A DNA stretch of 64,000 nucleotides from an uncultured Thermoanaerobaculia bacterium. Lineage in GTDB: Bacteria; Acidobacteriota; Thermoanaerobaculia; Thermoanaerobaculales; Sulfomarinibacteraceae. The number at the start of each line of letters is the position of its first letter. Position 1 is the first letter of the stretch. The notes beneath the pieces are model-generated. The model saw nothing but the letters and a program-made list of their open reading frames with translations, was not told the origin of the DNA and did no database searches. This document shows positions 15,362-50,492 of this stretch, piece after piece. The position numbers and the translations under genes were made by a program. The stretch lies in the NCBI GenBank assembly GCA_964420405.1, contig CAYQTL010000004.1, positions 71,706 through 135,705 of the forward strand, given 5' to 3'.

Positions 15362-15480
15362 GCAGGCCGTCGCGGGCTTCCGTAGCGCCACCTTCCAGGT
15401 GGCATGCCTCGCAGGCCGCCGCAAGCTCTCGTAGCGCCACCTTCCAGGTGGCATGCCTCGCAGGCCGTCGCGGGCTCCCG
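15362..15480. repeat. 49-bp tandem repeat, about 2.4 copies. Each full unit contains the perfect hairpin gccacct-tcc-aggtggc followed by the palindrome ggcatgcc.
   Basis: Units at 15362-15410, 15411-15459 and 15460-15480, read directly. The 29-nt core gtagcgccaccttccaggtggcatgcctc is identical in both full units. The 12-mer ccggctggcacc flanks the array at 15322-15333 and 15514-15525. Confidence 0.8.
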
Positions 15481-15797
15481 CCTGTCGATGCACCGGGCTC
15501 GGGCGTCTGCGTGCCGGCTGGCACCCCACCGGAGGGAGCGGTTGCGGTTGAGGCCACTGGGGGTCGAAGAGGGTGGGTGGGGTGGCCATCAACCGCCCGC
15601 TCATCCCGGGGGGTCGCCGGGCGCGACGCGCACGAGCAGGCCGGCGCGCTCCAGGCAGCCGGGGCTGCGGGCTGCCGTCAGCGCCCCGCTCCGCGCCGCG
15701 CGCTGCAGTGGTAGACTCCCCGTGCAGACGTGACACAGATCAGGACCTGCGCCCCGTCCACCGTCCGTCCCGGGACCGCCGCGGCGGAGCCCTCGCG

Positions 15798-24239: not shown

Positions 24240-24390
24240 CCGGTACCTCCCTGACGCCCCCGGAGCGAGCCCGCGCCACCGCCAGCGGGGCGCAGTCGGT
24301 CCGCACTCCCGGAGGTACGTCGCGTCCCGCGGGGAGTTGCGCGCCACCCGAAGGGCCCAACCGCGACCGCCGGTCGGGCGTTCCCGTGAC

Positions 24391-25584
24391 CTACTCGGTC
24401 CGCAACGCCTCCACCGGGTCGAGCCCGGCCGCTCGCCTGGCCGGGGCGACACCGCTGAGAATCCCCACCACCACGCTCATCGTGACCGCGGCGACGACCG
24501 CCAGGGGTGGCGTCGCCACCGGCAGGCCGGGCACCGCCAACCGCACCAGCCCGATCAGGCCGAGCCCCGCCGCCACCCCGAGCGCGCCGCCGGCTCCTGC
24601 CAGCACCACCGACTCCAGCAGGAACAGCCGCTCGACGTCGTGTCGCTCGACGCCGAGCGCGCGCAGCAGCCCGATCTCGGCGGTCCGTTCGTGGACCGAG
24701 ATCCACATGATGGTGAGGATCCCGATCGCACCGACCACCAGCGAGATCCCGGCGATGCCCGACACCGCCACCGTCACGATCCCGATCACCCGGTCGAAGG
24801 TCTCCAGCATCTCGGTCTGGGTGGTGACGGTGAAGTCCTCCTCGCCCCGGTGGCGCTCGGTCAGCACAGAGGTGATGCCGGCCACCACCTCCGGGATCCG
24901 CTCGGTGCTGTCGGCGACGACGTCGATCTCGAGCAGCTCGTCGACGTTGAAGAGCGACAGCGCGGTGGCCGCCGGGATGAAGCCCGTGTCGTCGAGGTCG
25001 AAACCGAGGAGCTGGCCCTTGGGCGCCATCACGCCGACGACCCGGAACGAGCGACCGCCGATCCGCACCCGCTCGCCGAGGGGCGAGGCGTCGTCGAACA
25101 GCTCCTGCGCCAGACCCGCCCCGAGCACGCACTCGACCCCTCCGCGGCGCGGGTCGCGGTCGGGCAGGAAGCGGCCCTGCCCGACCTCGAGCCGCCATGC
25201 CTCGGCGGCCTCGCCGCCGACGCCGTACAGCATCACGCTGCGGCCGCGGCCGCCGCCCTCGACCCTCGCCGGGCCGCCGACCACCGGCACCACGTGCTCG
25301 ACGCCCGGCAGCCGGCGCAGCGCCTCGGCGTCGTCGATGGTCAGCGGGTGGGTGGTGCCGCCGAGCACGCCTGGCACGCCGAAGGTGGTGGCCTTGCCCG
25401 GGTTGACCGCGATCAGGCTGGTGCCGAACTGGGTGAACTGGTTGACGATGTAGCCGCGGGCGCCCTCCCCCACCGAGGTCAGGACGATCACCGCCGCGAC
25501 GCCGATGGCGACCCCCAGGGCCGACAGGACCGACCGCAGCCGGTGCCCCGCCAGCGCCCCCACCACGTAGCGGATCAGGTCCAT
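24391..25584 (-). CDS. ABC transporter permease, MacB/FtsX family
   Basis: Last 397 codons of track ORF 24391..26127, starting at ATG 25584 (MDLIRYVVGALAGHRLRSVLSALGV). FtsX-type C-terminus RTAEIGLLRALG ... PARRAAGLDPVEALRTE. Confidence 0.85.
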   Translation of the reverse strand: MDLIRYVVGALAGHRLRSVLSALGVAIGVAAVIVLTSVGEGARGYIVNQFTQFGTSLIAVNPGKATTFGVPGVLGGTTHPLTIDDAEALRRLPGVEHVVPVVGGPARVEGGGRGRSVMLYGVGGEAAEAWRLEVGQGRFLPDRDPRRGGVECVLGAGLAQELFDDASPLGERVRIGGRSFRVVGVMAPKGQLLGFDLDDTGFIPAATALSLFNVDELLEIDVVADSTERIPEVVAGITSVLTERHRGEEDFTVTTQTEMLETFDRVIGIVTVAVSGIAGISLVVGAIGILTIMWISVHERTAEIGLLRALGVERHDVERLFLLESVVLAGAGGALGVAAGLGLIGLVRLAVPGLPVATPPLAVVAAVTMSVVVGILSGVAPARRAAGLDPVEALRTE

Positions 25585-25621
25585 CGCGGCTCCGCACCCA
25601 CTCCGCGCGATCGACCCATCC

Positions 25622-25903
25622 GATCCCGATCCCGTCCCCGATCCCGATCCCGACGCTGGCTGCCACCGGACGCGGCGACGGCTTCGGACGAGCAAGCGGC
25701 TGCACGGCCTTCCACACGCCCTCTCCGGAGAGCGGAGTCCCTGCAACCCTCTCGGCGACACCCACGAACGCTCCTCCGCAGACCCTCCCGGTGGTCCGAC
25801 TCGAACGCACCTCGTGTCGTATCTGCCATTACGAGCTGGGGGGAGTCGTGGTCGACGAGCTCCGGGGACCTGGCCCTTCGGGATCGGGATCGGGATCGGA
25901 GCG
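25622..25903. repeat. HAE full copy (282 bp). Left arm gatccc gatccc gtcccc gatccc gatccc; right arm gggatc gggatc gggatc ggagcg. Located between the two permease genes of one operon.
   Basis: Arms read directly. The left boundary CATCCGATCCCGAT and inner boundary TCCCGACG are shared with other copies. The interior has short matches (atggcaga, ggaggag, gtgtcgc) to the reverse complement of the 50189 copy. Confidence 0.75.
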
Positions 25904-25933
25904 GGCTCGTGGCAGATTGCGACATTCTGTCCA

Positions 25934-27133
25934 TCACCTTCCGGCGAGGGCGACGACGGGGTCGAGCTTCGCGGCCCGGCGCGCCGGCACGACACCGAAC
26001 ACGAGGCCGACCGCCACCGACACCGCGAGCGCGGCGCCGATCGCCCAGCCCGGGGGCGCCGCCGGGAAGCTCGGCCAGATCCCGACCAGCAGCCTGACCA
26101 CCGCCCAGCCGCCGGCGAGTCCGACAAGGCCGCCCGCGGTCGACAGCACCGCGGCCTCGGCGACGAACACCCCCAGCACCTGCGCGGTGCTCGCGCCGAG
26201 CGCCTTCAGCAGGCCGATCTCTCGCCGCCGCTCGGCCACCGCCACCAGCATCACGTTCATGATCCCGACCCCGGCCACCGTCAGCGACACCGACGCGATC
26301 GCCGCCAGGGTGAGGGTCAGCACCCGCAGGATCGAGGACAGGGTGTCGACCACCGCGTCCTGGGTGATGACGGTGACGTCCTCGGCCCGATGGCGTTCGG
26401 CGAGCAGGGCGACGACCGCCTCGGCGCCGGCGTCGAGCTCCCGCTCGGAGCGCAGCTCCACCAGGATCCGGAACAGGGAGCTGCGGTCGAACATCTGCAT
26501 CGCGGTGCGCACCGGCACCATGACCAGGTCGTCGAAGTCGAAGCCGAGGGAGCGGCCGCGCGGCGCCAGCACGCCCACCACCCGGAACCGCCAGTCCCCG
26601 ATCCGCACCACCTGGCCGAGCGGGTTGCGCGCCCCGAAAAGCTCCCGCGCGACCTTCACCCCGAGCACCACCTCGGTGCCGCCGCGGTCGGGGTCGCCCG
26701 GCGTCAGGAAGCGGCCGGCGCCGACCTCGAGCCGCCGCACCTCGAGCAGCTCGGCGGTGGTCCCCAGCACCGGCACCGCACGGCCCCGCGAGCGCCACTG
26801 GACGGTCTCGGTGCCGGTGGCGAGCGGCGCGGCCCGGGCCACCATCGGGAGTCGCGTCGCCACCGCCCGGAAGTCGTCGAGCGTGAGATCGTGGGTCGTG
26901 CCGCCGAACGGCAGCACGCCGGTGGTCTCGACCTTGCCGGGGATGACGATCAGCAGGTTGCTGCCGAGGGAGGTGAACTCCTGGACGACGTAGCGCCGGG
27001 CGCCTTCGCCGAGGGCGGTCAGCGCCACCACCGCCGCGATCCCCACCGCCACCCCGAGCATCGACAGCCCGGTCCGGAGCCTGTGGCCGGTCAACCCGCC
27101 GACGGCGAATCCAATGAGGTCGCCGGGCCGCAT
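25934..27133 (-). CDS. ABC transporter permease, MacB/FtsX family
   Basis: 399 aa (MRPGDLIGFAVGGLTGHRLRTGLSMLGV...). 1-nt start/stop overlap with the upstream ATPase gene. Confidence 0.85.
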   Translation of the reverse strand: MRPGDLIGFAVGGLTGHRLRTGLSMLGVAVGIAAVVALTALGEGARRYVVQEFTSLGSNLLIVIPGKVETTGVLPFGGTTHDLTLDDFRAVATRLPMVARAAPLATGTETVQWRSRGRAVPVLGTTAELLEVRRLEVGAGRFLTPGDPDRGGTEVVLGVKVARELFGARNPLGQVVRIGDWRFRVVGVLAPRGRSLGFDFDDLVMVPVRTAMQMFDRSSLFRILVELRSERELDAGAEAVVALLAERHRAEDVTVITQDAVVDTLSSILRVLTLTLAAIASVSLTVAGVGIMNVMLVAVAERRREIGLLKALGASTAQVLGVFVAEAAVLSTAGGLVGLAGGWAVVRLLVGIWPSFPAAPPGWAIGAALAVSVAVGLVFGVVPARRAAKLDPVVALAGR

Positions 27134-27825
27134 CAGCTGCGCTCCACGATGGCGCCGTCCTCCATCACGATGCGGCGGCGTGCGTGCTCGGCCACCCGCG
27201 GGTCGTGGGTCACCAGCACCACCGTCTGGCCGGCGGCATGCATCCGCTCCAGAAGCGCGATGACCTCCTCGGCCGACAGCCGGTCGAGGTTCCCGGTGGG
27301 CTCGTCGGCGAGCAGCAGCGCCGGCTCCATCACCGTCGAGCGCGCGATCGCCACCCGCTGCCGCTGGCCGCCCGAGAGCTGGTCCGGCCGGTGGTGCGCC
27401 CGGTCCGACAGCCCTACCCGCTCGAGCGCCCGGTCCGCTCGGGCGCGGCGCTCCGCGGCGGGAACGCCCGCGAACAGCATCGGGAGCTCCACGTTCCGCC
27501 GGGCGTCGAGCCGGGGAAGGAGGTGGAAGAACTGGAACACGAACCCGATGTCGTGGCGGCGCAGGCGGCTGCGCTCGGCGTCACCGAGGGCCGCGACGTC
27601 CTGGCCGCGGAGCCGGTAGGTGCCGGCCGTCGGACGGTCCAGACAGCCGAGCACGTTGAGCAGCGTCGACTTGCCCGAGCCCGACGGGCCGATGACGGCG
27701 AGGAAGTCGCCCGCGTCGATCGTCAGGTCCACCGCCCGCATGGCGTGGACCTCCGAGCCGCCGACGCGGTAGGTCCGCCACAGACCCTCGAGCTCGATCA
27801 GCGGCTCGCCGCCGGGCGGGGTCAC
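27133..27825 (-). CDS. ABC transporter ATP-binding protein (MacB/LolD-like)
   Basis: Track ORF 27133..27909, trimmed to GTG 27825, which lies 1 nt after the adaptor gene stop. Walker A GPSGSGKST. Signature LSGGQRQRVAIAR. Walker B LLLADEPT. Confidence 0.85.
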   Translation of the reverse strand: MTPPGGEPLIELEGLWRTYRVGGSEVHAMRAVDLTIDAGDFLAVIGPSGSGKSTLLNVLGCLDRPTAGTYRLRGQDVAALGDAERSRLRRHDIGFVFQFFHLLPRLDARRNVELPMLFAGVPAAERRARADRALERVGLSDRAHHRPDQLSGGQRQRVAIARSTVMEPALLLADEPTGNLDRLSAEEVIALLERMHAAGQTVVLVTHDPRVAEHARRRIVMEDGAIVERS

Positions 27826-27826
27826 G

Positions 27827-28966
27827 TCAGCCGTCGTCCCCGGCGGGAGCCGCCGCCACCCCGGGCCGCACCTGCGTGGAGCCGCGGACCAGCACCACGC
27901 GCTCCCCAACCTCGAGACCCTCCAGCACCTCGACCCAGTCCCAGCTGCGCAGGCCCGTCCGGACCGTCCGCTCCTCGAGAACGCCGTCGGCGAGCACCAG
28001 CGCCGAGCCGCCGCCGCCGACCGCCGAGGCCGGAACGCGCAGCACGTCGTCGCGCCGGTCGAGCACGATCTCCACGTCGGCCGAGGTCCCCGGCAGCAGG
28101 CCGGCGACCGCCTCCTCGAGCTCGACCTCGACCTCGACCGTCCGGTTCTGCTCGAGCTGGTCGAGCACGTACGGCGCGATCCGCGATATGCGCCCGGCCA
28201 GCACCGCGTCGGGCCGCGAGTCCACCGTCACCCGGACCGGCATCCCCACCGCCACGCGCTCGGCGTCGATCTCGTCGATGGGCGCGCTGACGTACACCGA
28301 GCGGGGGTCGAGCAGGTCGATCACCGGCGGGATCGGGACTCCCGGCGGCGACGGCGTGATCCACTCGCCCACCTCCGTCGAGACCTCCGCCACGATGCCG
28401 CCGAACGGTGCCGCGAGACGGGTGAACGAGAGCTCCACCTCGGCGGCTTCGACCTGCGCGGCGGCCTCGGTGACGGTGGCACGGGCCGCGGCGCACGCCG
28501 CCGCGGTGCGGTCGCGGTCGGTGCGCAGGGCGTCCAGCGCCTGGTTCGACGCGATACCGCGCTCGTGCAGAGCCGTCGTCCGGTCCAGCTCGACCCGCGC
28601 CAGCTCGGCAGCCAGGCACGCCTCCTCGGCCCGCGCCTCGGCCGCGGTCACGCGGCGCCGCGCGAGCTCGAGCTGGGCCCGCTGCGCACGGTCGTCGAGG
28701 CCCAGGAGCAGGTCGCCCGCCGCGACCCGCGCCCCCTCCCGGTGCGGCAGCGTCGTGACCAGGCCTCCGATCTGCGGCGACAGCCGCGCCCGGGTGCGGG
28801 CCTGCACCGTGCCGGCCCGGGTGTTGGTCACCGTGGCCTCGACCGGGCCGCGCGCGACCTCCTGCACCCGTACCTCGACCGGCTCGACGCGCAGCAGCCC
28901 CCACCACACGCCGAACGCCACCGCTGCGAGCACGACCGCCACCACCAACCAGCGCAGCCATCTCAT
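27827..28966 (-). CDS. Efflux periplasmic adaptor subunit (HlyD/MFP family)
   Basis: 379 aa. N-terminal TM MRWLRWLVVAVVLAAVAFGVWW. Coiled-coil hairpin region and beta-barrel C-terminus typical of MFPs. Confidence 0.85.
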   Translation of the reverse strand: MRWLRWLVVAVVLAAVAFGVWWGLLRVEPVEVRVQEVARGPVEATVTNTRAGTVQARTRARLSPQIGGLVTTLPHREGARVAAGDLLLGLDDRAQRAQLELARRRVTAAEARAEEACLAAELARVELDRTTALHERGIASNQALDALRTDRDRTAAACAAARATVTEAAAQVEAAEVELSFTRLAAPFGGIVAEVSTEVGEWITPSPPGVPIPPVIDLLDPRSVYVSAPIDEIDAERVAVGMPVRVTVDSRPDAVLAGRISRIAPYVLDQLEQNRTVEVEVELEEAVAGLLPGTSADVEIVLDRRDDVLRVPASAVGGGGSALVLADGVLEERTVRTGLRSWDWVEVLEGLEVGERVVLVRGSTQVRPGVAAAPAGDDG

Positions 28967-29093
28967 GACCGTGGATTGTACGGCCGCCGCGGTCGGAAGA
29001 TGTTGCGGGTTCGTGACAGGAGTGGCTCGTTCGCGTCCACGCCTCGCGGGATCCGATCAGTGCCGCCTGCTCTGCTACCCTTCGCCGACGGCG

Positions 29094-30461
29094 ATGGAGG
29101 ACGGCATGACCGAAGGTCGCTCGACGTGGCGCTTCCCGCGCGCCTTCTGGACCGGCAACGCCGCCGAGCTGTTCGAGCGGGCGGCGTACTACGGGACATT
29201 CATCGCGCTGCGGACCTACCTGATCCGGGTGGTGGGTCTCGACGACGTCCAGGCCGGCTGGGTGGCGGCGCCGTTCGCAGCGCTGATCTACCTGCTGCCG
29301 TTCTTCACCGGCGCGCTGGCCGACCGGATGGGGTTCCGGCCGGCGCTGGCGCTGGCGTTCGCGCTGCTGACCGTCGGCTACGGCACGCTCGGGGTGTTCT
29401 CGACCCTCGGGCCGGTGCTGGTGGGCCTCGCGCTGATCGTGATCGGCGGCGCGTTCGTCAAGCCGGTGATCACCGGCACCGTGTCGACGTCGTCGGACAC
29501 CGCCAACCGCGCGAGAGCGTTCTCGATCTTCTACATGGTGGTGAACATCGGCTCGTTCACCGGCAAGACGATCGTGGCCCCGATCCGGATCGAGATGGGG
29601 GTCGAGAACGTGCCGTGGTTCTCCTCGGCGGCCAGCTTCATCGCACTGCTGCTGGTGCTCGTCATCTTCCGTCCCCCGTCACGTGACGACGTGCGGCCGC
29701 GCAACATTCGCGAGACCCTGGACGGCATGTGGCTCGCCATGTCCAACGTCCGGTTCCTGCTGCTGATCCTGATCACGGCCGGCTTCTGGGCGATCCAGGG
29801 CCAGCTGTACGCGGCGATGCCCGACTACGTGCTGCGGATGGCGGGTGAGACCTACAAGCCCGAGTGGTACGCAAACGTCAACCCCTTCGTGGTGGTGCTC
29901 TTCGTCGTCGCCGTCACCCAGTGGACACGGAGGTGGAAGCCCCACAACTCGATCCTGATCGCGCTCGGCCTGATCCCGTTCTCGGCGCTGTCGATGGCGC
30001 TGTCGGCGTTCTTCGAGGGGCCGATCGGCGCGTTCGGGATGGCGTTGCACCCGATCACGGTGATGATGGTGATCGGCATCGCGATCCAGGGCATCTCCGA
30101 GTGCTTCCTGAGCCCCAAGTACCTGGAGTTCGCGTCGATCCAGGCGCCCGACGGCAAGGAGGGGGCGTTCCTCGGCTTCGCCCACATGAACACGTTCTTC
30201 GCGTGGCTGTTCGGGTTCGTGCTGTCGGGCTACCTGCTGGAGGCGTACTGCCCGGCGCCGTCGACCCTCACCCCCGAGCTGCAGGCCGCCCACGCCGCCT
30301 GGCTCGCCGGAGCCGGCCCGATGCCCGAGGCGTACGCGAACGCCCACTACCTCTGGTACGCCTACACCGGCATCGGCGTCGTGTCGTTCATTCTCATGGT
30401 GGTGTACGTGGTGGTCACCACCCGGATCGACCGCGACACGGCGTCGTCGCCGGGGGTCTGA
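29094..30461 (+). CDS. Proton-dependent oligopeptide transporter (POT/PTR2, MFS)
   Basis: C-terminal part of track ORF 27876..30461. POT motifs ELFERAAYYG and FTGALADRMGFR. About 12-14 hydrophobic segments. Start at ATG 29094 or ATG 29106. Confidence 0.85.
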   Translation: MEDGMTEGRSTWRFPRAFWTGNAAELFERAAYYGTFIALRTYLIRVVGLDDVQAGWVAAPFAALIYLLPFFTGALADRMGFRPALALAFALLTVGYGTLGVFSTLGPVLVGLALIVIGGAFVKPVITGTVSTSSDTANRARAFSIFYMVVNIGSFTGKTIVAPIRIEMGVENVPWFSSAASFIALLLVLVIFRPPSRDDVRPRNIRETLDGMWLAMSNVRFLLLILITAGFWAIQGQLYAAMPDYVLRMAGETYKPEWYANVNPFVVVLFVVAVTQWTRRWKPHNSILIALGLIPFSALSMALSAFFEGPIGAFGMALHPITVMMVIGIAIQGISECFLSPKYLEFASIQAPDGKEGAFLGFAHMNTFFAWLFGFVLSGYLLEAYCPAPSTLTPELQAAHAAWLAGAGPMPEAYANAHYLWYAYTGIGVVSFILMVVYVVVTTRIDRDTASSPGV

Positions 30462-35071: not shown

Positions 35072-35776
35072 ATGATGCTGAGTCTCAGAAACATCCACAA
35101 GTCCTACGGCGGCGACACCACCCGGCTGCACGTGCTCAAGGGAATCGACCTCGAGATCGGGGCCGGCGAGATGGTCGCCATCATGGGGCACTCCGGCTCG
35201 GGGAAGTCGACGCTGCTGAACGTGCTCGGGATCCTGGACCGCTACGACGACGGGGAGTACCGCCTGGACGACCTCCTGATCCGCGGCCTGACGGAGCGCC
35301 AAGCAGCCAGGGTCCGCAACGCCATGCTCGGCTTCGTGTTCCAGTCGTTCAACCTGATCCCCTTCAAGAACGCGGTCGAGAACGTGGCGCTGCCACTGTA
35401 CTACCGCGGCGTCGGCCGGCGGCGGCGCAACCGCATCGCGCTCGAGTACCTGGAACGGGTCGGTCTCGCGCCCTGGGCCGCCCACCTGCCGTCCCAGCTG
35501 TCGGGTGGCCAGCAGCAGCGGGTCGCCATCGCCCGCGCCCTGATCACCGAGCCGAAGGTGATTCTCGCGGACGAGCCGACCGGCGCACTGGACTCGACCA
35601 CGTCCTACGAGGTCATGCGGCTGCTCGGCTCCATCAACGGGGACGGCACGACGGTGGTGATCGTCACCCACGAGGATGACATCGCCCACCTGTGCCGGAG
35701 GATCATCCGACTCGACGACGGCGTCATCGCGGGAGACCACCGGGTCGTGCCCGCGGCGGCCGCCGCCACCGCCTGA
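35072..35776 (+). CDS. ABC transporter ATP-binding protein (MacB/LolD-like)
   Basis: Track ORF 35021..35776, trimmed to ATG 35072 (GGGAGA upstream). Walker [10 protein letters not shown]. Signature [13 protein letters not shown]. Walker B ILADEPT. Confidence 0.9.
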
Positions 35777-35783
35777 GGGACCC

Positions 35784-37016
<1,233 letters not shown>

Positions 37017-37022
37017 GCGCTG

Positions 37023-38282
37023 ATGCTCGACCTCGACCACTGGAACGAGATCTGGGTCTCGCTGGCGCGCAACAAGGTGCGCACCGCGCTGACCGCGTTC
37101 GGCGTGTTCTGGGGCCTGTTCATGCTGATGGCGATGCTGGGCTCCGGCAACGGGCTGTCCAACGGCGCCGAGGCGGGCTTCGCCGGCACCGCCACCAACA
37201 GCTTCTTCATGTGGGGCCGTCGGACCACCGAGCCGTACCGAGGTCTTCCCGCCGGCCGGCCGATCGAGATGACCAACGCGGACTACCGGGCGCTGCTCGA
37301 CCGGCTGCCGGAGGCCGAGACCATCGCACCCCGCAACCAGCTCGGCGGCTACCGCGACGGCACCCCGGTCGTCCGCGGCGCCAACACCGGGGCGTTCTCG
37401 ATCATGGGGGACTACCCGGCGATCCGGGGCATCCAGTCTCTCACGATCCTCGACGGCCGGTTCCTCAACCCGTTCGACCTGTCCGAGCGCCGCAAGGTCG
37501 CGGTGATCGGCACCCGGGTGCGGGAGGTGCTGTTCGAGGCCGGCGAGGACCCGGTCGGGGAGAGCATCGAGATCAACGGCGTCTACTTCCGGGTCATCGG
37601 GGTGTTCGGCTCCCACCAGACCGGCGAGCGGGCGGAGCAGGACACCCAGACGATCTACGTTCCCTTCACCACCTTCCAGCAGGCGTTCAACTTCGGCGAC
37701 CGGATCGGCTGGTTCGCGATCACCTCGCGGCCGGGCACCCCCGCCTCGGTGGTCGAGGAGAAGGCCCTGACGATCCTCAGGAGCCGCCACAAGGTTGCGC
37801 CGTGGGACGAGCGCGCCTTCGGGCACTGGAACATGGAGGAGGAGTTCAACCGCATCCGCGGGGTGCTCACCGGCATCCACACCCTGGTGTGGATCGTCGG
37901 TGTCGGGACCCTCGCCGCCGGCGTCATCGGGGTGTCCAACATCATGCTGATCATCGTCCGCGAGCGCACCAGGGAGATCGGCGTCCGGCGGGCGATCGGG
38001 GCCACGCCGGTCGCGATCACCGGCCAGATCGTGCTGGAGGCGGTGCTGCTGACCGGGGCCGCCGGCGCCCTCGGGCTCATGCTCGGGGTCGGCCTGCTGG
38101 AGGCCGTCAACACGATGCTGCAGGCGGGCCCCGGCAGCCCCATGTTCCGGCGCCCCGGGGTCGAGCTCGGCACCGCCCTGTACGCCCTCGGGATCCTGGT
38201 CGTCGCCGGCGTGCTCGCCGGCCTCATGCCGGCGTGGCGGGCGCTCCAGATCCAGCCCGTCGAGGCCCTCCGCGCGGAGTGA
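37023..38282 (+). CDS. ABC transporter permease, MacB/FtsX family
   Basis: 419 aa, paralogous to the preceding permease. C-terminus RTREIGVRRAIGA...PAWRALQIQPVEALRAE. Confidence 0.85.
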   Translation: MLDLDHWNEIWVSLARNKVRTALTAFGVFWGLFMLMAMLGSGNGLSNGAEAGFAGTATNSFFMWGRRTTEPYRGLPAGRPIEMTNADYRALLDRLPEAETIAPRNQLGGYRDGTPVVRGANTGAFSIMGDYPAIRGIQSLTILDGRFLNPFDLSERRKVAVIGTRVREVLFEAGEDPVGESIEINGVYFRVIGVFGSHQTGERAEQDTQTIYVPFTTFQQAFNFGDRIGWFAITSRPGTPASVVEEKALTILRSRHKVAPWDERAFGHWNMEEEFNRIRGVLTGIHTLVWIVGVGTLAAGVIGVSNIMLIIVRERTREIGVRRAIGATPVAITGQIVLEAVLLTGAAGALGLMLGVGLLEAVNTMLQAGPGSPMFRRPGVELGTALYALGILVVAGVLAGLMPAWRALQIQPVEALRAE

Positions 38283-38297
38283 GCATGCTCCGCATCC

Positions 38298-38321
38298 GAT
38301 CCCGATCCCGTTCCCGTTCCC
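38298..38321. repeat. HAE single arm: gatccc gatccc gttccc gttccc
   Basis: Read directly, with boundaries CATCCGATCCCGAT and TCCCGACG. It lies inside the plus-strand ABC operon, between the permease and adaptor genes. Confidence 0.8.
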
Positions 38322-38385
38322 GACGGGTCCGCCCGCGCGGTCCGGAACCCCTCCACGACGACACCGACCACGAGGACCACCTGAC

Positions 38386-39489
38386 ATGCTCAAGAAGATC
38401 TTCGGCACGCTGCTCGCGCTCATCCTGCTCGCCGCCTTCGCCGGCACCCTGTGGCTGCTGTACCGCAAGTCCCAGGAGCCGCCGGTCACCTTCGAGACGC
38501 GCCAGCCGTTCGTCGCCGACATCATCAAGAAGACTGTCGCCACCGGCTCCGTGGTCCCCCGCCAGGAGGTCGACGTCAAGCCCCAGGTGTCGGGCATCAT
38601 CGAGGAGATCTTCGTCGAGCCGGGCCAGGAGGTGGCACGGGACGACCTCATCGCGCGGGTCCGGATCGTGCCCGACATCGGCAGCCTCGCGGCGGCCGAG
38701 AACCGGCTCGAGGTGGCCCGCATCAACGCCGAGAACGCGCGGCTCGAGTACCAGCGCAACCGGGAGCTCTTCGAGCAGGGGTTGACGGCGGAGTCCGACT
38801 TCCTCCGCTTCGACCTCGCGCTGAAGAACGCCGAGCAGGAGATCGAGGCCGCCGAGGACAACCTGGCCGTCATCCGCGAGGGTGCCCGCCGGCGCTCCGG
38901 CGACCCGTCGGCCACCAACACCCTGGTCCGCGCCACCACCGCAGGCATGGTGCTCGAGGTGCCGGTCGAGCTCGGCGACTCGGTGATCGAGACCAACACC
39001 TTCAACGACGGCACGACCATCGCCACCATCGCAGACATGGACGAGATGGTGTTCGAGGGCACGGTCGACGAGTCGGAGGTCGGCAAGCTGCGCGAGGGGA
39101 TGGGCCTGCTGCTGACCATCGGCGCCGTCGAGCAGGAGCGGTTCGAGGCGGTGCTCGAGTACATCTCGCCGAAAGGCGTCGAGGAGGAGGGGGCGATCCA
39201 GTTCGAGATCCGCGCTGCCCTCGCCCTCGAGGACCGCGCCACCTTCATCCGCGCCAACTACAGCGCCACCGCTGACATCGTGCTCGACCGCCGCGACGCG
39301 GTGCTGGCGGTGCAGGAGAGCTGGCTGCTGTTCGACGAGGGCGAGCCCTACGTCGAGGTCGAGACCGCGCCCCAGCAGTTCGAGCGGCGGGACGTGGTGC
39401 TCGGCCTGTCCGACGGGATCGTGATCGAGGTCGTCGACGGCCTGGATGCGACGGACCGGGTCAAGGACCCGAACTCGGCGGCCGCATGA
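38386..39489 (+). CDS. Efflux periplasmic adaptor subunit (HlyD/MFP family)
   Basis: 367 aa. N-terminal TM MLKKIFGTLLALILLAAFAGTLWLL. Lipoyl-like VKPQVSGIIEEIFVEPGQEV. Coiled-coil region. Confidence 0.85.
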   Translation: MLKKIFGTLLALILLAAFAGTLWLLYRKSQEPPVTFETRQPFVADIIKKTVATGSVVPRQEVDVKPQVSGIIEEIFVEPGQEVARDDLIARVRIVPDIGSLAAAENRLEVARINAENARLEYQRNRELFEQGLTAESDFLRFDLALKNAEQEIEAAEDNLAVIREGARRRSGDPSATNTLVRATTAGMVLEVPVELGDSVIETNTFNDGTTIATIADMDEMVFEGTVDESEVGKLREGMGLLLTIGAVEQERFEAVLEYISPKGVEEEGAIQFEIRAALALEDRATFIRANYSATADIVLDRRDAVLAVQESWLLFDEGEPYVEVETAPQQFERRDVVLGLSDGIVIEVVDGLDATDRVKDPNSAAA

Positions 39490-39905
39490 TCTGCGCCGCG
39501 CGCCTCGCCGCGTTCCTCCTCGTCCCCGCCGCGCTGGCGACCGGCTGCCAGACCGGCCTGTACGGCGGCACCTCCGAGTGGTCGCGGACCTACCTCCAGA
39601 CCGAGGAGCGGGTCTGGCAGGCGCTGCTCGACACCCTCGCCGAGGAGGGCTTCCACCTCGACGACCTCGACCGGGAGACCGGCCGGGTGCGCGCGACGGG
39701 CGGCCATCCCGACGCGTACCGCGAGGCGCTGCTCGACGTGCGGCTGCGGCCGGTCTCCGAAGGCCTCCGGGTCGACGTGGAAGGCCGCATGGGGCTCGAC
39801 CCGGGCGCCGAGCTGTACCGCCTCGACCGCCTGATCGAGGCGATCCTCACCGCCCTCGACGAGAAGATCCTCGGCCGCCCCACCACCTCCGCCGGCCCAC
39901 GCTGA
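39486..39905 (+). CDS. Lipoprotein of unknown function, last gene of the ABC/MFP operon
   Basis: 139 aa. ATGA overlap with the adaptor gene. Lipobox LATGC. Confidence 0.6.
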   Translation: MICAARLAAFLLVPAALATGCQTGLYGGTSEWSRTYLQTEERVWQALLDTLAEEGFHLDDLDRETGRVRATGGHPDAYREALLDVRLRPVSEGLRVDVEGRMGLDPGAELYRLDRLIEAILTALDEKILGRPTTSAGPR

Positions 39906-39941
39906 CGCCGCTGACGCCATCAGGTGACGGACGGCTCACTC

Positions 39942-40222
39942 GACCCCGATCCCGTTCCCGATCCCGATCCCGACGCACGGTCTCGAGAGGTCGGAACACG
40001 GCATCCGCAGGGGGCGGAGGCACGCAGAGGCGAGGCAGTTGCGGGCGTTGGAGCCCTCTCACCGCCTCGTATCGGCCGATCCCCCGAGGACCGGCTCCTC
40101 TCGCCGCGAAAGGCGGACGAGAGGCTGCCGGACGAGGCCGCCCTGCTTCCCCTGCGTCCTCTGTGCCTTCGACTTCCGTCTCGCCCCGGTCATGAACCCC
40201 ATCGTCGGGATCGGTCGGATCG
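39942..40222. repeat. HAE full copy (about 281 bp). Left arm gacccc gatccc gttccc gatccc gatccc; right arm degenerate (gggatc ggtcgg atcg).
   Basis: Read directly. The interior shares gaggctgccg (40121-40130) and the block pair ggaggcac.cagagg / cctctgtgcc with the 46357 copy. Confidence 0.7.
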
Positions 40223-50188: not shown

Positions 50189-50492
50189 GTTTCCGCTCCC
50201 GATCCCGTTCCCGTTCCCGACGGGAGCTCTCGAGTCGCGCGCGCCGGTCAACCACAGAGACACGAAGGCACGGAGGAGAGCTTCCGATGGCAGACCCGGA
50301 GTAACCTCACCGTGTCGCATCACACTCTCGTCGAGACTCGAGCTCACGCGTCCCGACGGACCCGCCGATGGCCGGTCGACGCTATCCTCGCTGCTCGCTC
50401 TCCGTGCCTCCGTTGCTCCGTGGTTCCACCCCATCCCGGTCCCGAGCCGCGTCATCGGGACCGGGATCGGGATCGGGATCGGGATCGGAACG
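50189..50492. repeat. HAE full copy (304 bp). Left arm gtttcc gctccc gatccc gttccc gttccc; right arm gggacc gggatc gggatc gggatc gggatc ggaacg.
   Basis: Read directly. Shared blocks cacagagacacg (50253-50264) and gtcgcatcac (50314-50323). Internal complementarity between gaaggcacggaggagagc (50264-50281) and gctctccgtgcctcc (50397-50411). Confidence 0.85.

Follow-up and report, generated by a model that had tools for sequence, protein, structure and literature searches.

Bacterial interspersed mosaic elements (BIMEs) and repetitive extragenic palindromic (REP) elements of enterobacteria are mosaics of palindromic units that lie between operon genes. The REP element between malE and malF stabilises the upstream mRNA. 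Tandem arrays of the heptamers GGGAATC and GGGGA(C/T)T, described in Xanthomonas and Nostoc, are 89-93% intergenic and occur mostly between open reading frames (ORFs) that are aligned, near stop and start codons (Rehm et al., 2015; PMC4692102). Xanthomonas has 183-186 such arrays per genome and 70-75 facing inverted pairs, able to form stem-loops that compete with G-quadruplexes. Unit number is variable in these arrays, with a preference for four units, the minimum for a G-quadruplex, and G-quadruplexes were formed in vitro. In Xanthomonas, the G-rich array follows stop codons on the coding strand and pairs are convergent (PMC4692102). Since 2015, no function has been known for these arrays in either Xanthomonas or Nostoc. 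TAACTGA heptamer direct repeats, found in Beggiatoaceae, Cyanobacteria and Bacteroidetes, form intergenic arrays of 2-6 copies near start codons, and a post-transcriptional role has been proposed (MacGregor, 2015; PMC4679880). Our literature search found no paper on such repeats in Thermoanaerobaculia. Here, we describe a 349-nucleotide (nt) spacer between the two permease genes of a MacB-type ATP-binding cassette (ABC) operon from an uncultured Thermoanaerobaculia bacterium. The spacer lies in a 64-kb stretch of one contig (64,000 nt; hereafter the window), and positions without a contig name refer to that stretch.

We judge it likely that the spacer is a non-coding mosaic repeat. In this reading, (CCGATC)n and inverted (GATCGG)n arms enclose a copy of a dispersed hairpin module, M, and approximately 90 nt of unique sequence. 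The spacer would be one member of a lineage-specific burst of hexamer arrays, would have been added to an overlapping stop/start junction and is most likely a tolerated passenger.

Hexamer arrays in this genome and in described systems

The repeat element within the spacer is 282 nt long and accounts for 81% of the 349-nt gap. An earlier, sequence-only reading of this DNA had proposed that one 282-bp "HAE", with C-rich units on the left and G-rich units on the right, fills almost the entire gap. This was borne out. The C-rich arm consists of the units CCGATC, CCGATC, CCGTCC, CCGATC, CCGATC and CCGACG. The units of the G-rich arm are TTCGGG, ATCGGG, ATCGGG and ATCGGA. Over 23 nt, the arms are 91% complementary, and the energy of the RNA duplex is approximately -45 kcal/mol on either strand.

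The element had also been assigned to a hexamer-armed family in the same genome (G000; 5.45 Mb, 211 contigs, 72.5% GC). We agree with this assignment. Counts of the motifs are far above controls. Allowing up to one mismatch, (GGGATC)3 has 1286 matches in the genome and its reversed control has 0. At the same stringency, CCGATCCCGATC occurs 50 times in the window compared with 1.8 times expected. We defined an array as at least three units with up to three mismatches, and 1090 arrays were found. Gene positions came from our own crude codon-model caller (4223 genes, 87% coding). By these positions, non-coding DNA makes up 13% of the genome and contains 83% of the 1090 arrays. The number of units ranges from 2 to 14. 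Arrays of 2-6 units are about equally common (120, 122, 136, 143 and 105, respectively), with a mode of 5. At the inner end, 33% of 679 seeded arrays have CCGACG and others have CCGATG, with C(A/G)TCGG as the mirror image; in 74%, a T stands directly outside the outer end.

Arrays less than 400 nt apart have a preferred arrangement; the C-rich array precedes the G-rich array in 234 cases and the opposite order occurs in 14. We collected 236 array pairs. Among the 217 that could be classified, 116 lie between co-directional genes, 51 between convergent genes and 50 between divergent genes. The pair fills the gap to within 80 nt in 34 of the 116 co-directional cases, as it does in the spacer at 25585-25933. 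In the window, five co-directional gene junctions bear arrays. Because co-directional pairs and junctions in the window commonly carry arrays, an intra-operon position is routine for this family. Solo arrays are polar with respect to genes. Those that are C-rich on the sense strand adjoin an upstream stop codon in 82 cases and are near a start codon in 10. Those that are G-rich on the sense strand adjoin a downstream start codon in 67 cases and are near a stop codon in 35.

The family is unevenly distributed among relatives. Again with up to one mismatch, (GGGATC)3 matched 164 and 68 times in two genomes of genus g3 and 0-11 times in every other relative searched. Judged by these counts, the burst of approximately 1100 arrays is specific to the G000 lineage.

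The G000 family shares several properties with the Xanthomonas and Nostoc arrays (PMC4692102). The units are short and combine a G-run with A, T and C, hundreds of arrays are present, unit number varies and inverted pairs are formed. Both families are biased to non-coding DNA and, where pairs have been classified here, to gaps between co-directional genes. Unlike the heptamers GGGNATC or GGGANTN, the unit in G000 is the hexamer GGGATC; the G3 tract and ATC are kept, with one base fewer. There are about 6-fold more arrays per genome and the four-unit preference is absent. Polarity is reversed compared with Xanthomonas. Thus, arrays after stop codons are C-rich on the sense strand (82 versus 35 G-rich), those before start codons are G-rich, and pairs run from C-rich to G-rich. 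The G000 arrays also have a fixed inner head, CCGA(C/T)G, and enclose other repeat modules. For G-quadruplexes, which the arrays of Rehm et al. form in vitro, the G000 arrays have the G3N3 motif. These features mark the family as a cousin of the inverted GGGAATC arrays of Xanthomonas, with a hexamer unit, reversed polarity and a mosaic build like that of BIMEs.

Similarity to BIMEs and REP elements is also evident. The G000 elements are non-coding, palindromic, intergenic and often intercistronic, probably with co-transcription, and they lack a terminator U-tract. They are mosaics of hexamer arrays with the CCGA(C/T)G head, module M, second-tier CTGWCG arrays and a REP-like palindrome. Unlike REP elements, the arms are microsatellites and not a fixed palindrome of approximately 35 nt, and the gene related to REP-associated tyrosine transposases (RAYTs) on contig C183 is flanked by other palindromes. 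Like TAACTGA arrays, those in G000 are abundant, short-unit, tandem, intergenic and near start codons (PMC4679880). Conversely, TAACTGA arrays are almost all direct (169 direct sets and one indirect), AT-rich, not capable of forming G-quadruplexes and not paired as hairpins.

Arrays were also seen in a second MacB-type operon in the window (35072-39905, + strand). A solo C-rich array at 38290-38319 lies 8 nt past the stop codon of the second permease gene and makes a 103-nt gap ahead of the adaptor gene. A further array, at 39940-39975, comes after the last gene of that operon.

The permease junction and the GATGGAC duplication

The operon that contains the spacer occupies the minus strand of 24391-28966. 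Its genes are arranged in the order adaptor, ATPase, permease 1 and permease 2. Direct reading, together with ORF and Pfam analysis, confirmed an earlier description of this operon as tightly packed, with a 1-nt gap and a 1-nt overlap. The 349 bp said to separate the permease genes correspond to the gap at 25585-25933. Both permeases have full-length matches to MacB_PCD and FtsX. Orthologues of permease 2 are 61-74% identical over their full length. Because alignments with these orthologues begin at residue 1-2, MDLIRY is the true N-terminus of permease 2. The operon is kept in 60 of the 61 relatives searched.

We extracted the permease junction from 30 genomes and 34 metagenome contigs, plus named genome records that partly overlap the 30. 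The relatives are labelled Acidobacteriota, Thermoanaerobaculia, Candidatus Sulfomarinibacteraceae or "Holophagae" metagenome-assembled genomes (MAGs). In total, 51 junctions were placed on a tree of permease-1 and permease-2 proteins. The junction measures 3-29 nt in the 28 rows outside the focal clade, and is typically TGAGATG, TGACATG or TGATGG. Two of the 28 rows are exceptions and have a 337-nt partial duplication of a permease gene. In G016 and G020, the nearest neighbours of G000, the junctions are 11 and 5 nt long. This is the comparison with orthologous operons that the sequence-only reading had proposed, and the short junctions of the nearest relatives (5-11 nt) point to an addition to a tight operon.

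The ends of the spacer are consistent with such an addition. GATGGAC occurs at both boundaries, once across the stop codon of permease 1 and once across the present start codon of permease 2 (Table 1). At the first of these, TGATGGAC is the real junction in three tight relatives (L064, L068 and L111), which read TGATGGACGC or TGATGGACAC at this position. We also asked whether the hexamer at the downstream start recurs no more than 20 nt from the upstream stop codon. Among the 116 co-directional elements, it does so only in this one, and mismatched controls gave approximately 0.003 per element. We infer that approximately 343 nt entered an overlapping stop/start junction with a 7-bp duplication. 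The empty site TGATGGACCTG (joined flanks ...TGATGGACCTGATCCGC) would represent the ancestral overlapping junction. Duplication of GATGGAC would have kept the stop codon of permease 1 and recreated the start codon of permease 2. The gain would postdate the divergence of G000 from the closest relatives sampled. A tight junction would be restored precisely if the 7-bp duplicates recombined. The locus is a clean example of how such an element could enter an overlapping stop/start junction with both genes unbroken, in which the 7-bp duplication would regenerate the start codon.

Table 1. Features of the operon, the spacer and module M. Positions are those of the window unless a contig is named.
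Feature	Position	Strand	Basis or remark
Adaptor gene, HlyD family, periplasmic; first gene of the operon	27827-28966	-	Pfam HlyD_3 8e-16, HlyD_D23 1.5e-14
ABC ATPase gene; GTG start 1 nt past adaptor stop	27133-27825	-	Pfam ABC_tran 6.5e-35
Permease 1, 399 aa, MacB_PCD + FtsX; ATG shares 1 nt with ATPase TGA	25934-27133	-	Pfam 1.1e-45, 3.2e-21
Permease 2, 397 aa, MacB_PCD + FtsX, intact	24391-25584	-	Pfam 2.5e-44, 4.6e-20
Non-coding spacer between permease genes, 349 nt	25585-25933		Negative coding score in all six frames, without periodicity in GC content at third codon positions (GC3)
TGATGGAC, permease-1 TGA overlapping relic ATG-GAC; first GATGGAC copy	25929-25936	-	Putative ancestral permease-2 start
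Second GATGGAC copy with present permease-2 start (ATG 25584-25582)	25579-25585	-	Orthologue alignments begin at residue 1-2
C-rich arm, (CCGATC)6-type, inner head CCGACG	25620-25655	+	3' G-rich arm in operon mRNA
G-rich arm TTCGGGATCGGGATCGGGATCGGA, (GATCGG)~4	25877-25900	+	5' C-rich arm in operon mRNA, 33 nt past permease-1 stop
Element interior, 220 nt	25656-25875		First ~125 nt is module M; other ~90 nt without significant genome match (blastn)
Copy of dispersed hairpin module M	25651-25800	+ (C-rich strand modelled)	Covariance model R1, 119 bits, E 2e-19
GGAG, Shine-Dalgarno-like, 5 nt upstream of permease-2 ATG	25590-25593	-	Read from sequence; putative role
Canonical G-quadruplex motif GGGATCGGGATCGGGGACGGG, mRNA strand	25631-25651	-	G3+N1-7 regex scan; motif only
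Other module M copies in G000	C197:271-418; C26:52896-53041; C11:15859-16009; C4:29507-29656; window 15509-15641 (weak)		

A different possibility is that the gap is coding, either as an N-terminal extension of permease 2 or as a small bridging protein that starts at the relic ATG (25934). Across the gap, five of the six frames are indeed open, and the permease-2 frame is open up to 26127. The relic ATG starts a frame of 119 codons, which ends 10 nt beyond the permease-2 ATG. However, an open frame of 117 codons at 73% GC has a probability of approximately 16% by chance, calculated from base composition. Codon log-odds of the gap are -0.41 to -0.79 bits per codon in the six frames. By comparison, the permeases score +0.80 and +0.83, and short genes have a first percentile of +0.17. 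Similarly, GC3 is 0.67-0.72 in the gap compared with 0.96 in the permeases, and there is no GC3 periodicity. Orthologues of permease 2 begin at MDL. Both conserved-gene readings were rejected on codon score and GC3, and we regard a coding gap as extremely improbable. The relic ATG may be incidentally translated. The open frames over this non-coding spacer (25575-26127, - strand) are a pitfall for ORF-based annotation of high-GC genomes. With Rfam 15, the only match at gathering score in the whole window was a tRNA, and a permissive scan of 25500-26000 found nothing below E = 2.

The 337-nt insert mentioned above was found in L026, L056 and L110 (G055 and matching contigs). It is a fused permease-gene fragment with the direct repeat TAGCCATGGAGAAC at its bounds. 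L058 encodes proteins identical to those of this type, and has an 11-nt junction without the insert. The difference is either a polymorphic tandem partial duplication or an assembly difference.

Module M, the element interior and the origin of the spacer

Module M forms the first part of the interior (Table 1). By blastn, the copy in the spacer shares 67-79% identity with at least eight other loci in G000, and the best of these copies matches it at 78.6% over 112 nt. The covariance model for M gave 26 matches at E<0.01 in this genome. In the same bacterial family, M is present in multiple copies in 17 of the 24 genomes searched, and it was found in none of 16 genomes of the neighbouring family. 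The consensus folds into a long hairpin, GAGCGAGTGGGTGT...ACACCCACGATCGCTC. Of the ten copies with the highest scores, several begin right after a (CCGATC)n array with a CCGA(C/T)G head. At the permease junction, the fold energy of M is -69.3 kcal/mol for the sense strand and -51.7 kcal/mol for the antisense strand. A tally of pair types gave approximately 15 G-U cells and approximately 14 A-C or C-A cells. Because these cells are balanced, M looks like a palindrome at the level of DNA and not like a strand-specific RNA.

Module M is approximately 120-150 nt long, is independent of the hexamer arms and has no Rfam match. One copy sits between two tRNA genes. In G019, tandem copies occur at C4:10452-10985 with a spacing of approximately 194 nt.

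Other interiors in the family are diverse. Their length is continuous, from 4 to approximately 430 nt, with a peak near 80-100 nt. Similarity to any other interior was found in only 77 of the 236 pairs; most interiors are unrelated. The printed copies suggest that this similarity comes largely from second-tier (CTGWCG)n hexamer arrays. When the interior of the spacer was compared with the other 235 by blastn, nothing was found at E<1e-3, and M was detected only in the whole-genome search. Taken together, an "HAE" is, as far as the copies in this genome indicate, a pair of microsatellite arms around variable content and not one element with a homologous core. Hexamer arms and interior behave as independent modules, and the interior of this copy holds a second repeat, M, spread over the whole bacterial family.

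It had been claimed that the interior has short matches to the reverse complement of the copy at 50189. We aligned interiors in both orientations by the Smith-Waterman method and compared the scores with 300 dinucleotide shuffles. The score against the 50189 copy was 19 in both orientations and the shuffle mean was approximately 20 (z -0.3 to -0.6). Alignment with the 50189 and 46355 interiors gave no signal (z -0.3 to -1.4), and those two interiors are homologous to each other (z 9.5). Hence, the reported matches are at chance level, and the interior fails to align to the 50189 copy in either orientation, an outcome that the sequence-only reading had itself named as counting against its proposal. 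Alignment at chance level carries no information on orientation. In addition, the arms are the same under reverse complementation and so cannot mark orientation. The evidence for insertion in the opposite orientation is therefore void. The accompanying view that orientation is not tied to transcription fares no better. The G-rich strand of M is the sense strand in five of six co-directional copies, including this one; this is a weak hint in the other direction, from too few copies for significance.

The same reading took the element to behave like a miniature inverted-repeat transposable element (MITE). A classical MITE would be non-autonomous, moved by a transposase acting on terminal inverted repeats and, here, inserted opposite to other copies. 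There is some resemblance. The element is small, non-coding and multi-copy with inverted ends, and a 7-bp direct repeat brackets the spacer. Genome-wide, flanking direct repeats of at least 7 nt are in slight excess (43% versus 35% in mismatched controls). However, this excess is weak and has no fixed position, and no consistent target duplication was apparent. The GATGGAC duplication is located 29-34 nt outside the arms. The arms themselves are microsatellites of 2-14 units, the family lacks size classes and a conserved interior, and the interior studied here matches none of the others. No cognate transposase was identified in the Y1 family, the sole transposase family searched. A search of G000 with Y1_Tnp (PF01797) gave two matches, neither of which is flanked by hexamer arrays. 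We conclude that the MITE reading is largely refuted, and a transposase-moved element of this kind is very unlikely at the permease junction. By itself, the copy is ordinary within a repeat family of very high abundance, and there is no need to retain the MITE reading.

The better of the two Y1 matches is a RAYT-like transposase ORF of 201 aa with an HVH motif (C183:289-894, + strand). It is flanked by REP-like palindromes of the GTAGCGCCACCTTCCAGGTGGCA and GCCGGCTATAAGCCGGC types, and not by hexamer arrays. A REP/RAYT link for the hexamer arrays was rejected, since the RAYT-like gene carries different repeats. The REP/RAYT system is, from this arrangement, separate from the hexamer arrays and co-exists with them in G000. 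The GTAGCGCCACCTTCCAGGTGGCA palindrome also forms a tandem with a 49-nt period at 15362-15480 of the window and adjoins an M copy on contig C1.

The spacer could instead have grown in place. A short junction would have expanded by slippage and hairpin-primed template switching, and sequence would have been recruited piecemeal. Several observations fit this idea. The arms are microsatellites of variable unit number, the interior includes approximately 90 nt of unique sequence, target duplication is not seen across the family, and related genomes show every intermediate junction length from 47 to 349 nt. Conversely, M is dispersed, and more than 10 other loci have homologues of it; at least this part must therefore have come from elsewhere. 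The presence of GATGGAC at both outer ends fits a single event better. We consider growth in place quite unlikely as the origin of the whole spacer. In the favoured reading, the arms would most likely arise, and change in length, by replication slippage. The inverted partner would most likely come from template switching, or from an array copied with its CCGA(C/T)G head, and not from the action of a transposase.

Transcription, and hairpins at the same junction in the sister clade

We examined the region 24300-29300 for E. coli-type signals. Neither a sigma-70 promoter consensus nor an intrinsic terminator was found on either strand. The sequence past the 3' arm is ATGGGTCGATCGCG, which has no U-tract. 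Because the spacer lacks a terminator or promoter consensus, transcription probably still gives a single RNA for the operon. Its arms would close a helix of approximately 24 bp (approximately -45 kcal/mol), with a structured loop of 220 nt inside. For its translation, permease 2 would rely on its own GGAG and no longer on stop-start coupling. Upstream of the permease-2 ATG, the G-quadruplex motif GGGATCGGGATCGGGGACGGG ends at a distance of 46 nt and is followed by two more G3 runs. The element would be a tolerated passenger, with at most a modest, REP- or BIME-like effect on mRNA stability or on the ratio of permease 1 to permease 2.

Expanded permease junctions are also found in a sister clade of 16 rows (support 100/96). 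All 16 members have one, with a length of 55-318 nt. Nearly all of these inserts are palindromes with tandem heptamer arms. The units differ by lineage and include GGAATTC, GGAATTA, GGATTTC, GAATTTC, GAATTAT and GAATGAT. Some other relatives, not all of which are on the tree, use GCAAATT/GGAATTT or GAGAAGG units. In one class, the length stays at 129-139 nt, and an inner CCACCC...GGGTGG stem is present together with a G-rich stretch ahead of the start codon. The sister-clade junction has carried repeat-armed hairpins over a long divergence (approximately 70% protein identity), in which the arms stay complementary and the unit changes.

Covariation of the arms was measured with eight sequences of the 129-139-nt class and 500 shuffles. 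In the arms, 87.3% of cells are paired compared with 81.8 +/- 1.4 in shuffles (0 of 500 reached this value). The covariation score is 0.162 compared with 0.087 in shuffles (0 of 500), and is at most 0.06 when the partners are slid. Changes of whole units are compensated in the opposite arm (CG to AU, and AU to UA). There are few independent covariation events, because one unit change counts in every repeat. The covariation could come from arm-to-arm copying as well as from selection.

These hairpins raise the possibility that the spacer is a selected intercistronic regulator. The hairpin, or a competing G-quadruplex, would set the permease ratio, protect the upstream mRNA or gate permease-2 translation, and the G000 element would be the version of this lineage. 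Consistent with such a role, the junction is expanded throughout the sister clade, one class has a preserved length and its arms covary. The G-quadruplex motif precedes the permease-2 ATG on the mRNA strand of G000, and solo arrays in the genome are polar to genes (C-rich sense arrays at stop codons, 82 versus 10; G-rich sense arrays at start codons, 67 versus 35). However, the junction is tight in G016 and G020, as it is in all genomes outside the clade. The hexamer family also lies between convergent (51) and divergent (50) genes. The covariation of tandem arms counts one change repeatedly, and arm-to-arm copying could explain it. Furthermore, the G000 element is unlike those of the sister clade. 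Its unit is 6 nt, its interior is different, and on the sense strand it starts with the C-rich arm, whereas the leading arm in relatives is the GG-bearing one. We think a selected regulator at this junction unlikely.

The G000 copy is best read as an independent acquisition, because its unit length, arm polarity and interior differ from those of relatives and because the hexamer burst is specific to G000. Five points weigh against the favoured reading. First, the metagenome and genome collections contained no relative closer than approximately 74-76% protein identity, and therefore there is no empty site to compare at the nucleotide level. Second, three gains are only slightly more parsimonious than a single gain at the base of a 23-row clade with two later losses. 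Third, the null result for promoters and terminators relates to E. coli-type consensus sequences. Fourth, the fold of the whole spacer is not more stable than that of shuffled sequences (z -1.2), in a test that has low power at 73% GC. Fifth, the sister clade has kept hairpins with covarying arms at the same junction, and these may be more than passengers.

A broader proposal would unite all of these inserts. In this Thermoanaerobaculia clade, an evolvable intercistronic hairpin would be maintained at the permease junction. Its helix would be kept by selection or by arm-to-arm copying while the unit turns over (GGAATTC, GGAATTA, GGATTTC, GAATTAT and GAGAAGG, with GGGATC in G000). Such hairpins would form a new class of cis-acting operon elements that tune cistron output via competition between hairpin and G-quadruplex. 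We regard this as speculative and rather improbable. The junction does make it testable whether G-rich intergenic arrays act, since tight controls and compensatory variants occur naturally.

Turnover of units is also seen in genome-wide counts, in which related genomes have hundreds of heptamer arrays whose units are lineage-specific. For (CGGAATT)3, G025 has 256 occurrences, G027 has 226 and G033, a congener of G025 in genus g4, has only 8. (CGGATTT)3 occurs 132-492 times in genus g6 (G005, G027 and G034), with 492 in G027, and 0 times in genus g4 (G025 and G033). From these counts, array families appear to arise and turn over quickly between species. A further type of arm was found at the permease junction of L089, a MAG labelled uncultured Holophagae. 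Here, the junction is a 147-nt palindrome with arms of the GAGAAGG / CCTTCTC type, which are unrelated to GGAATT-type units or to GGGATC.

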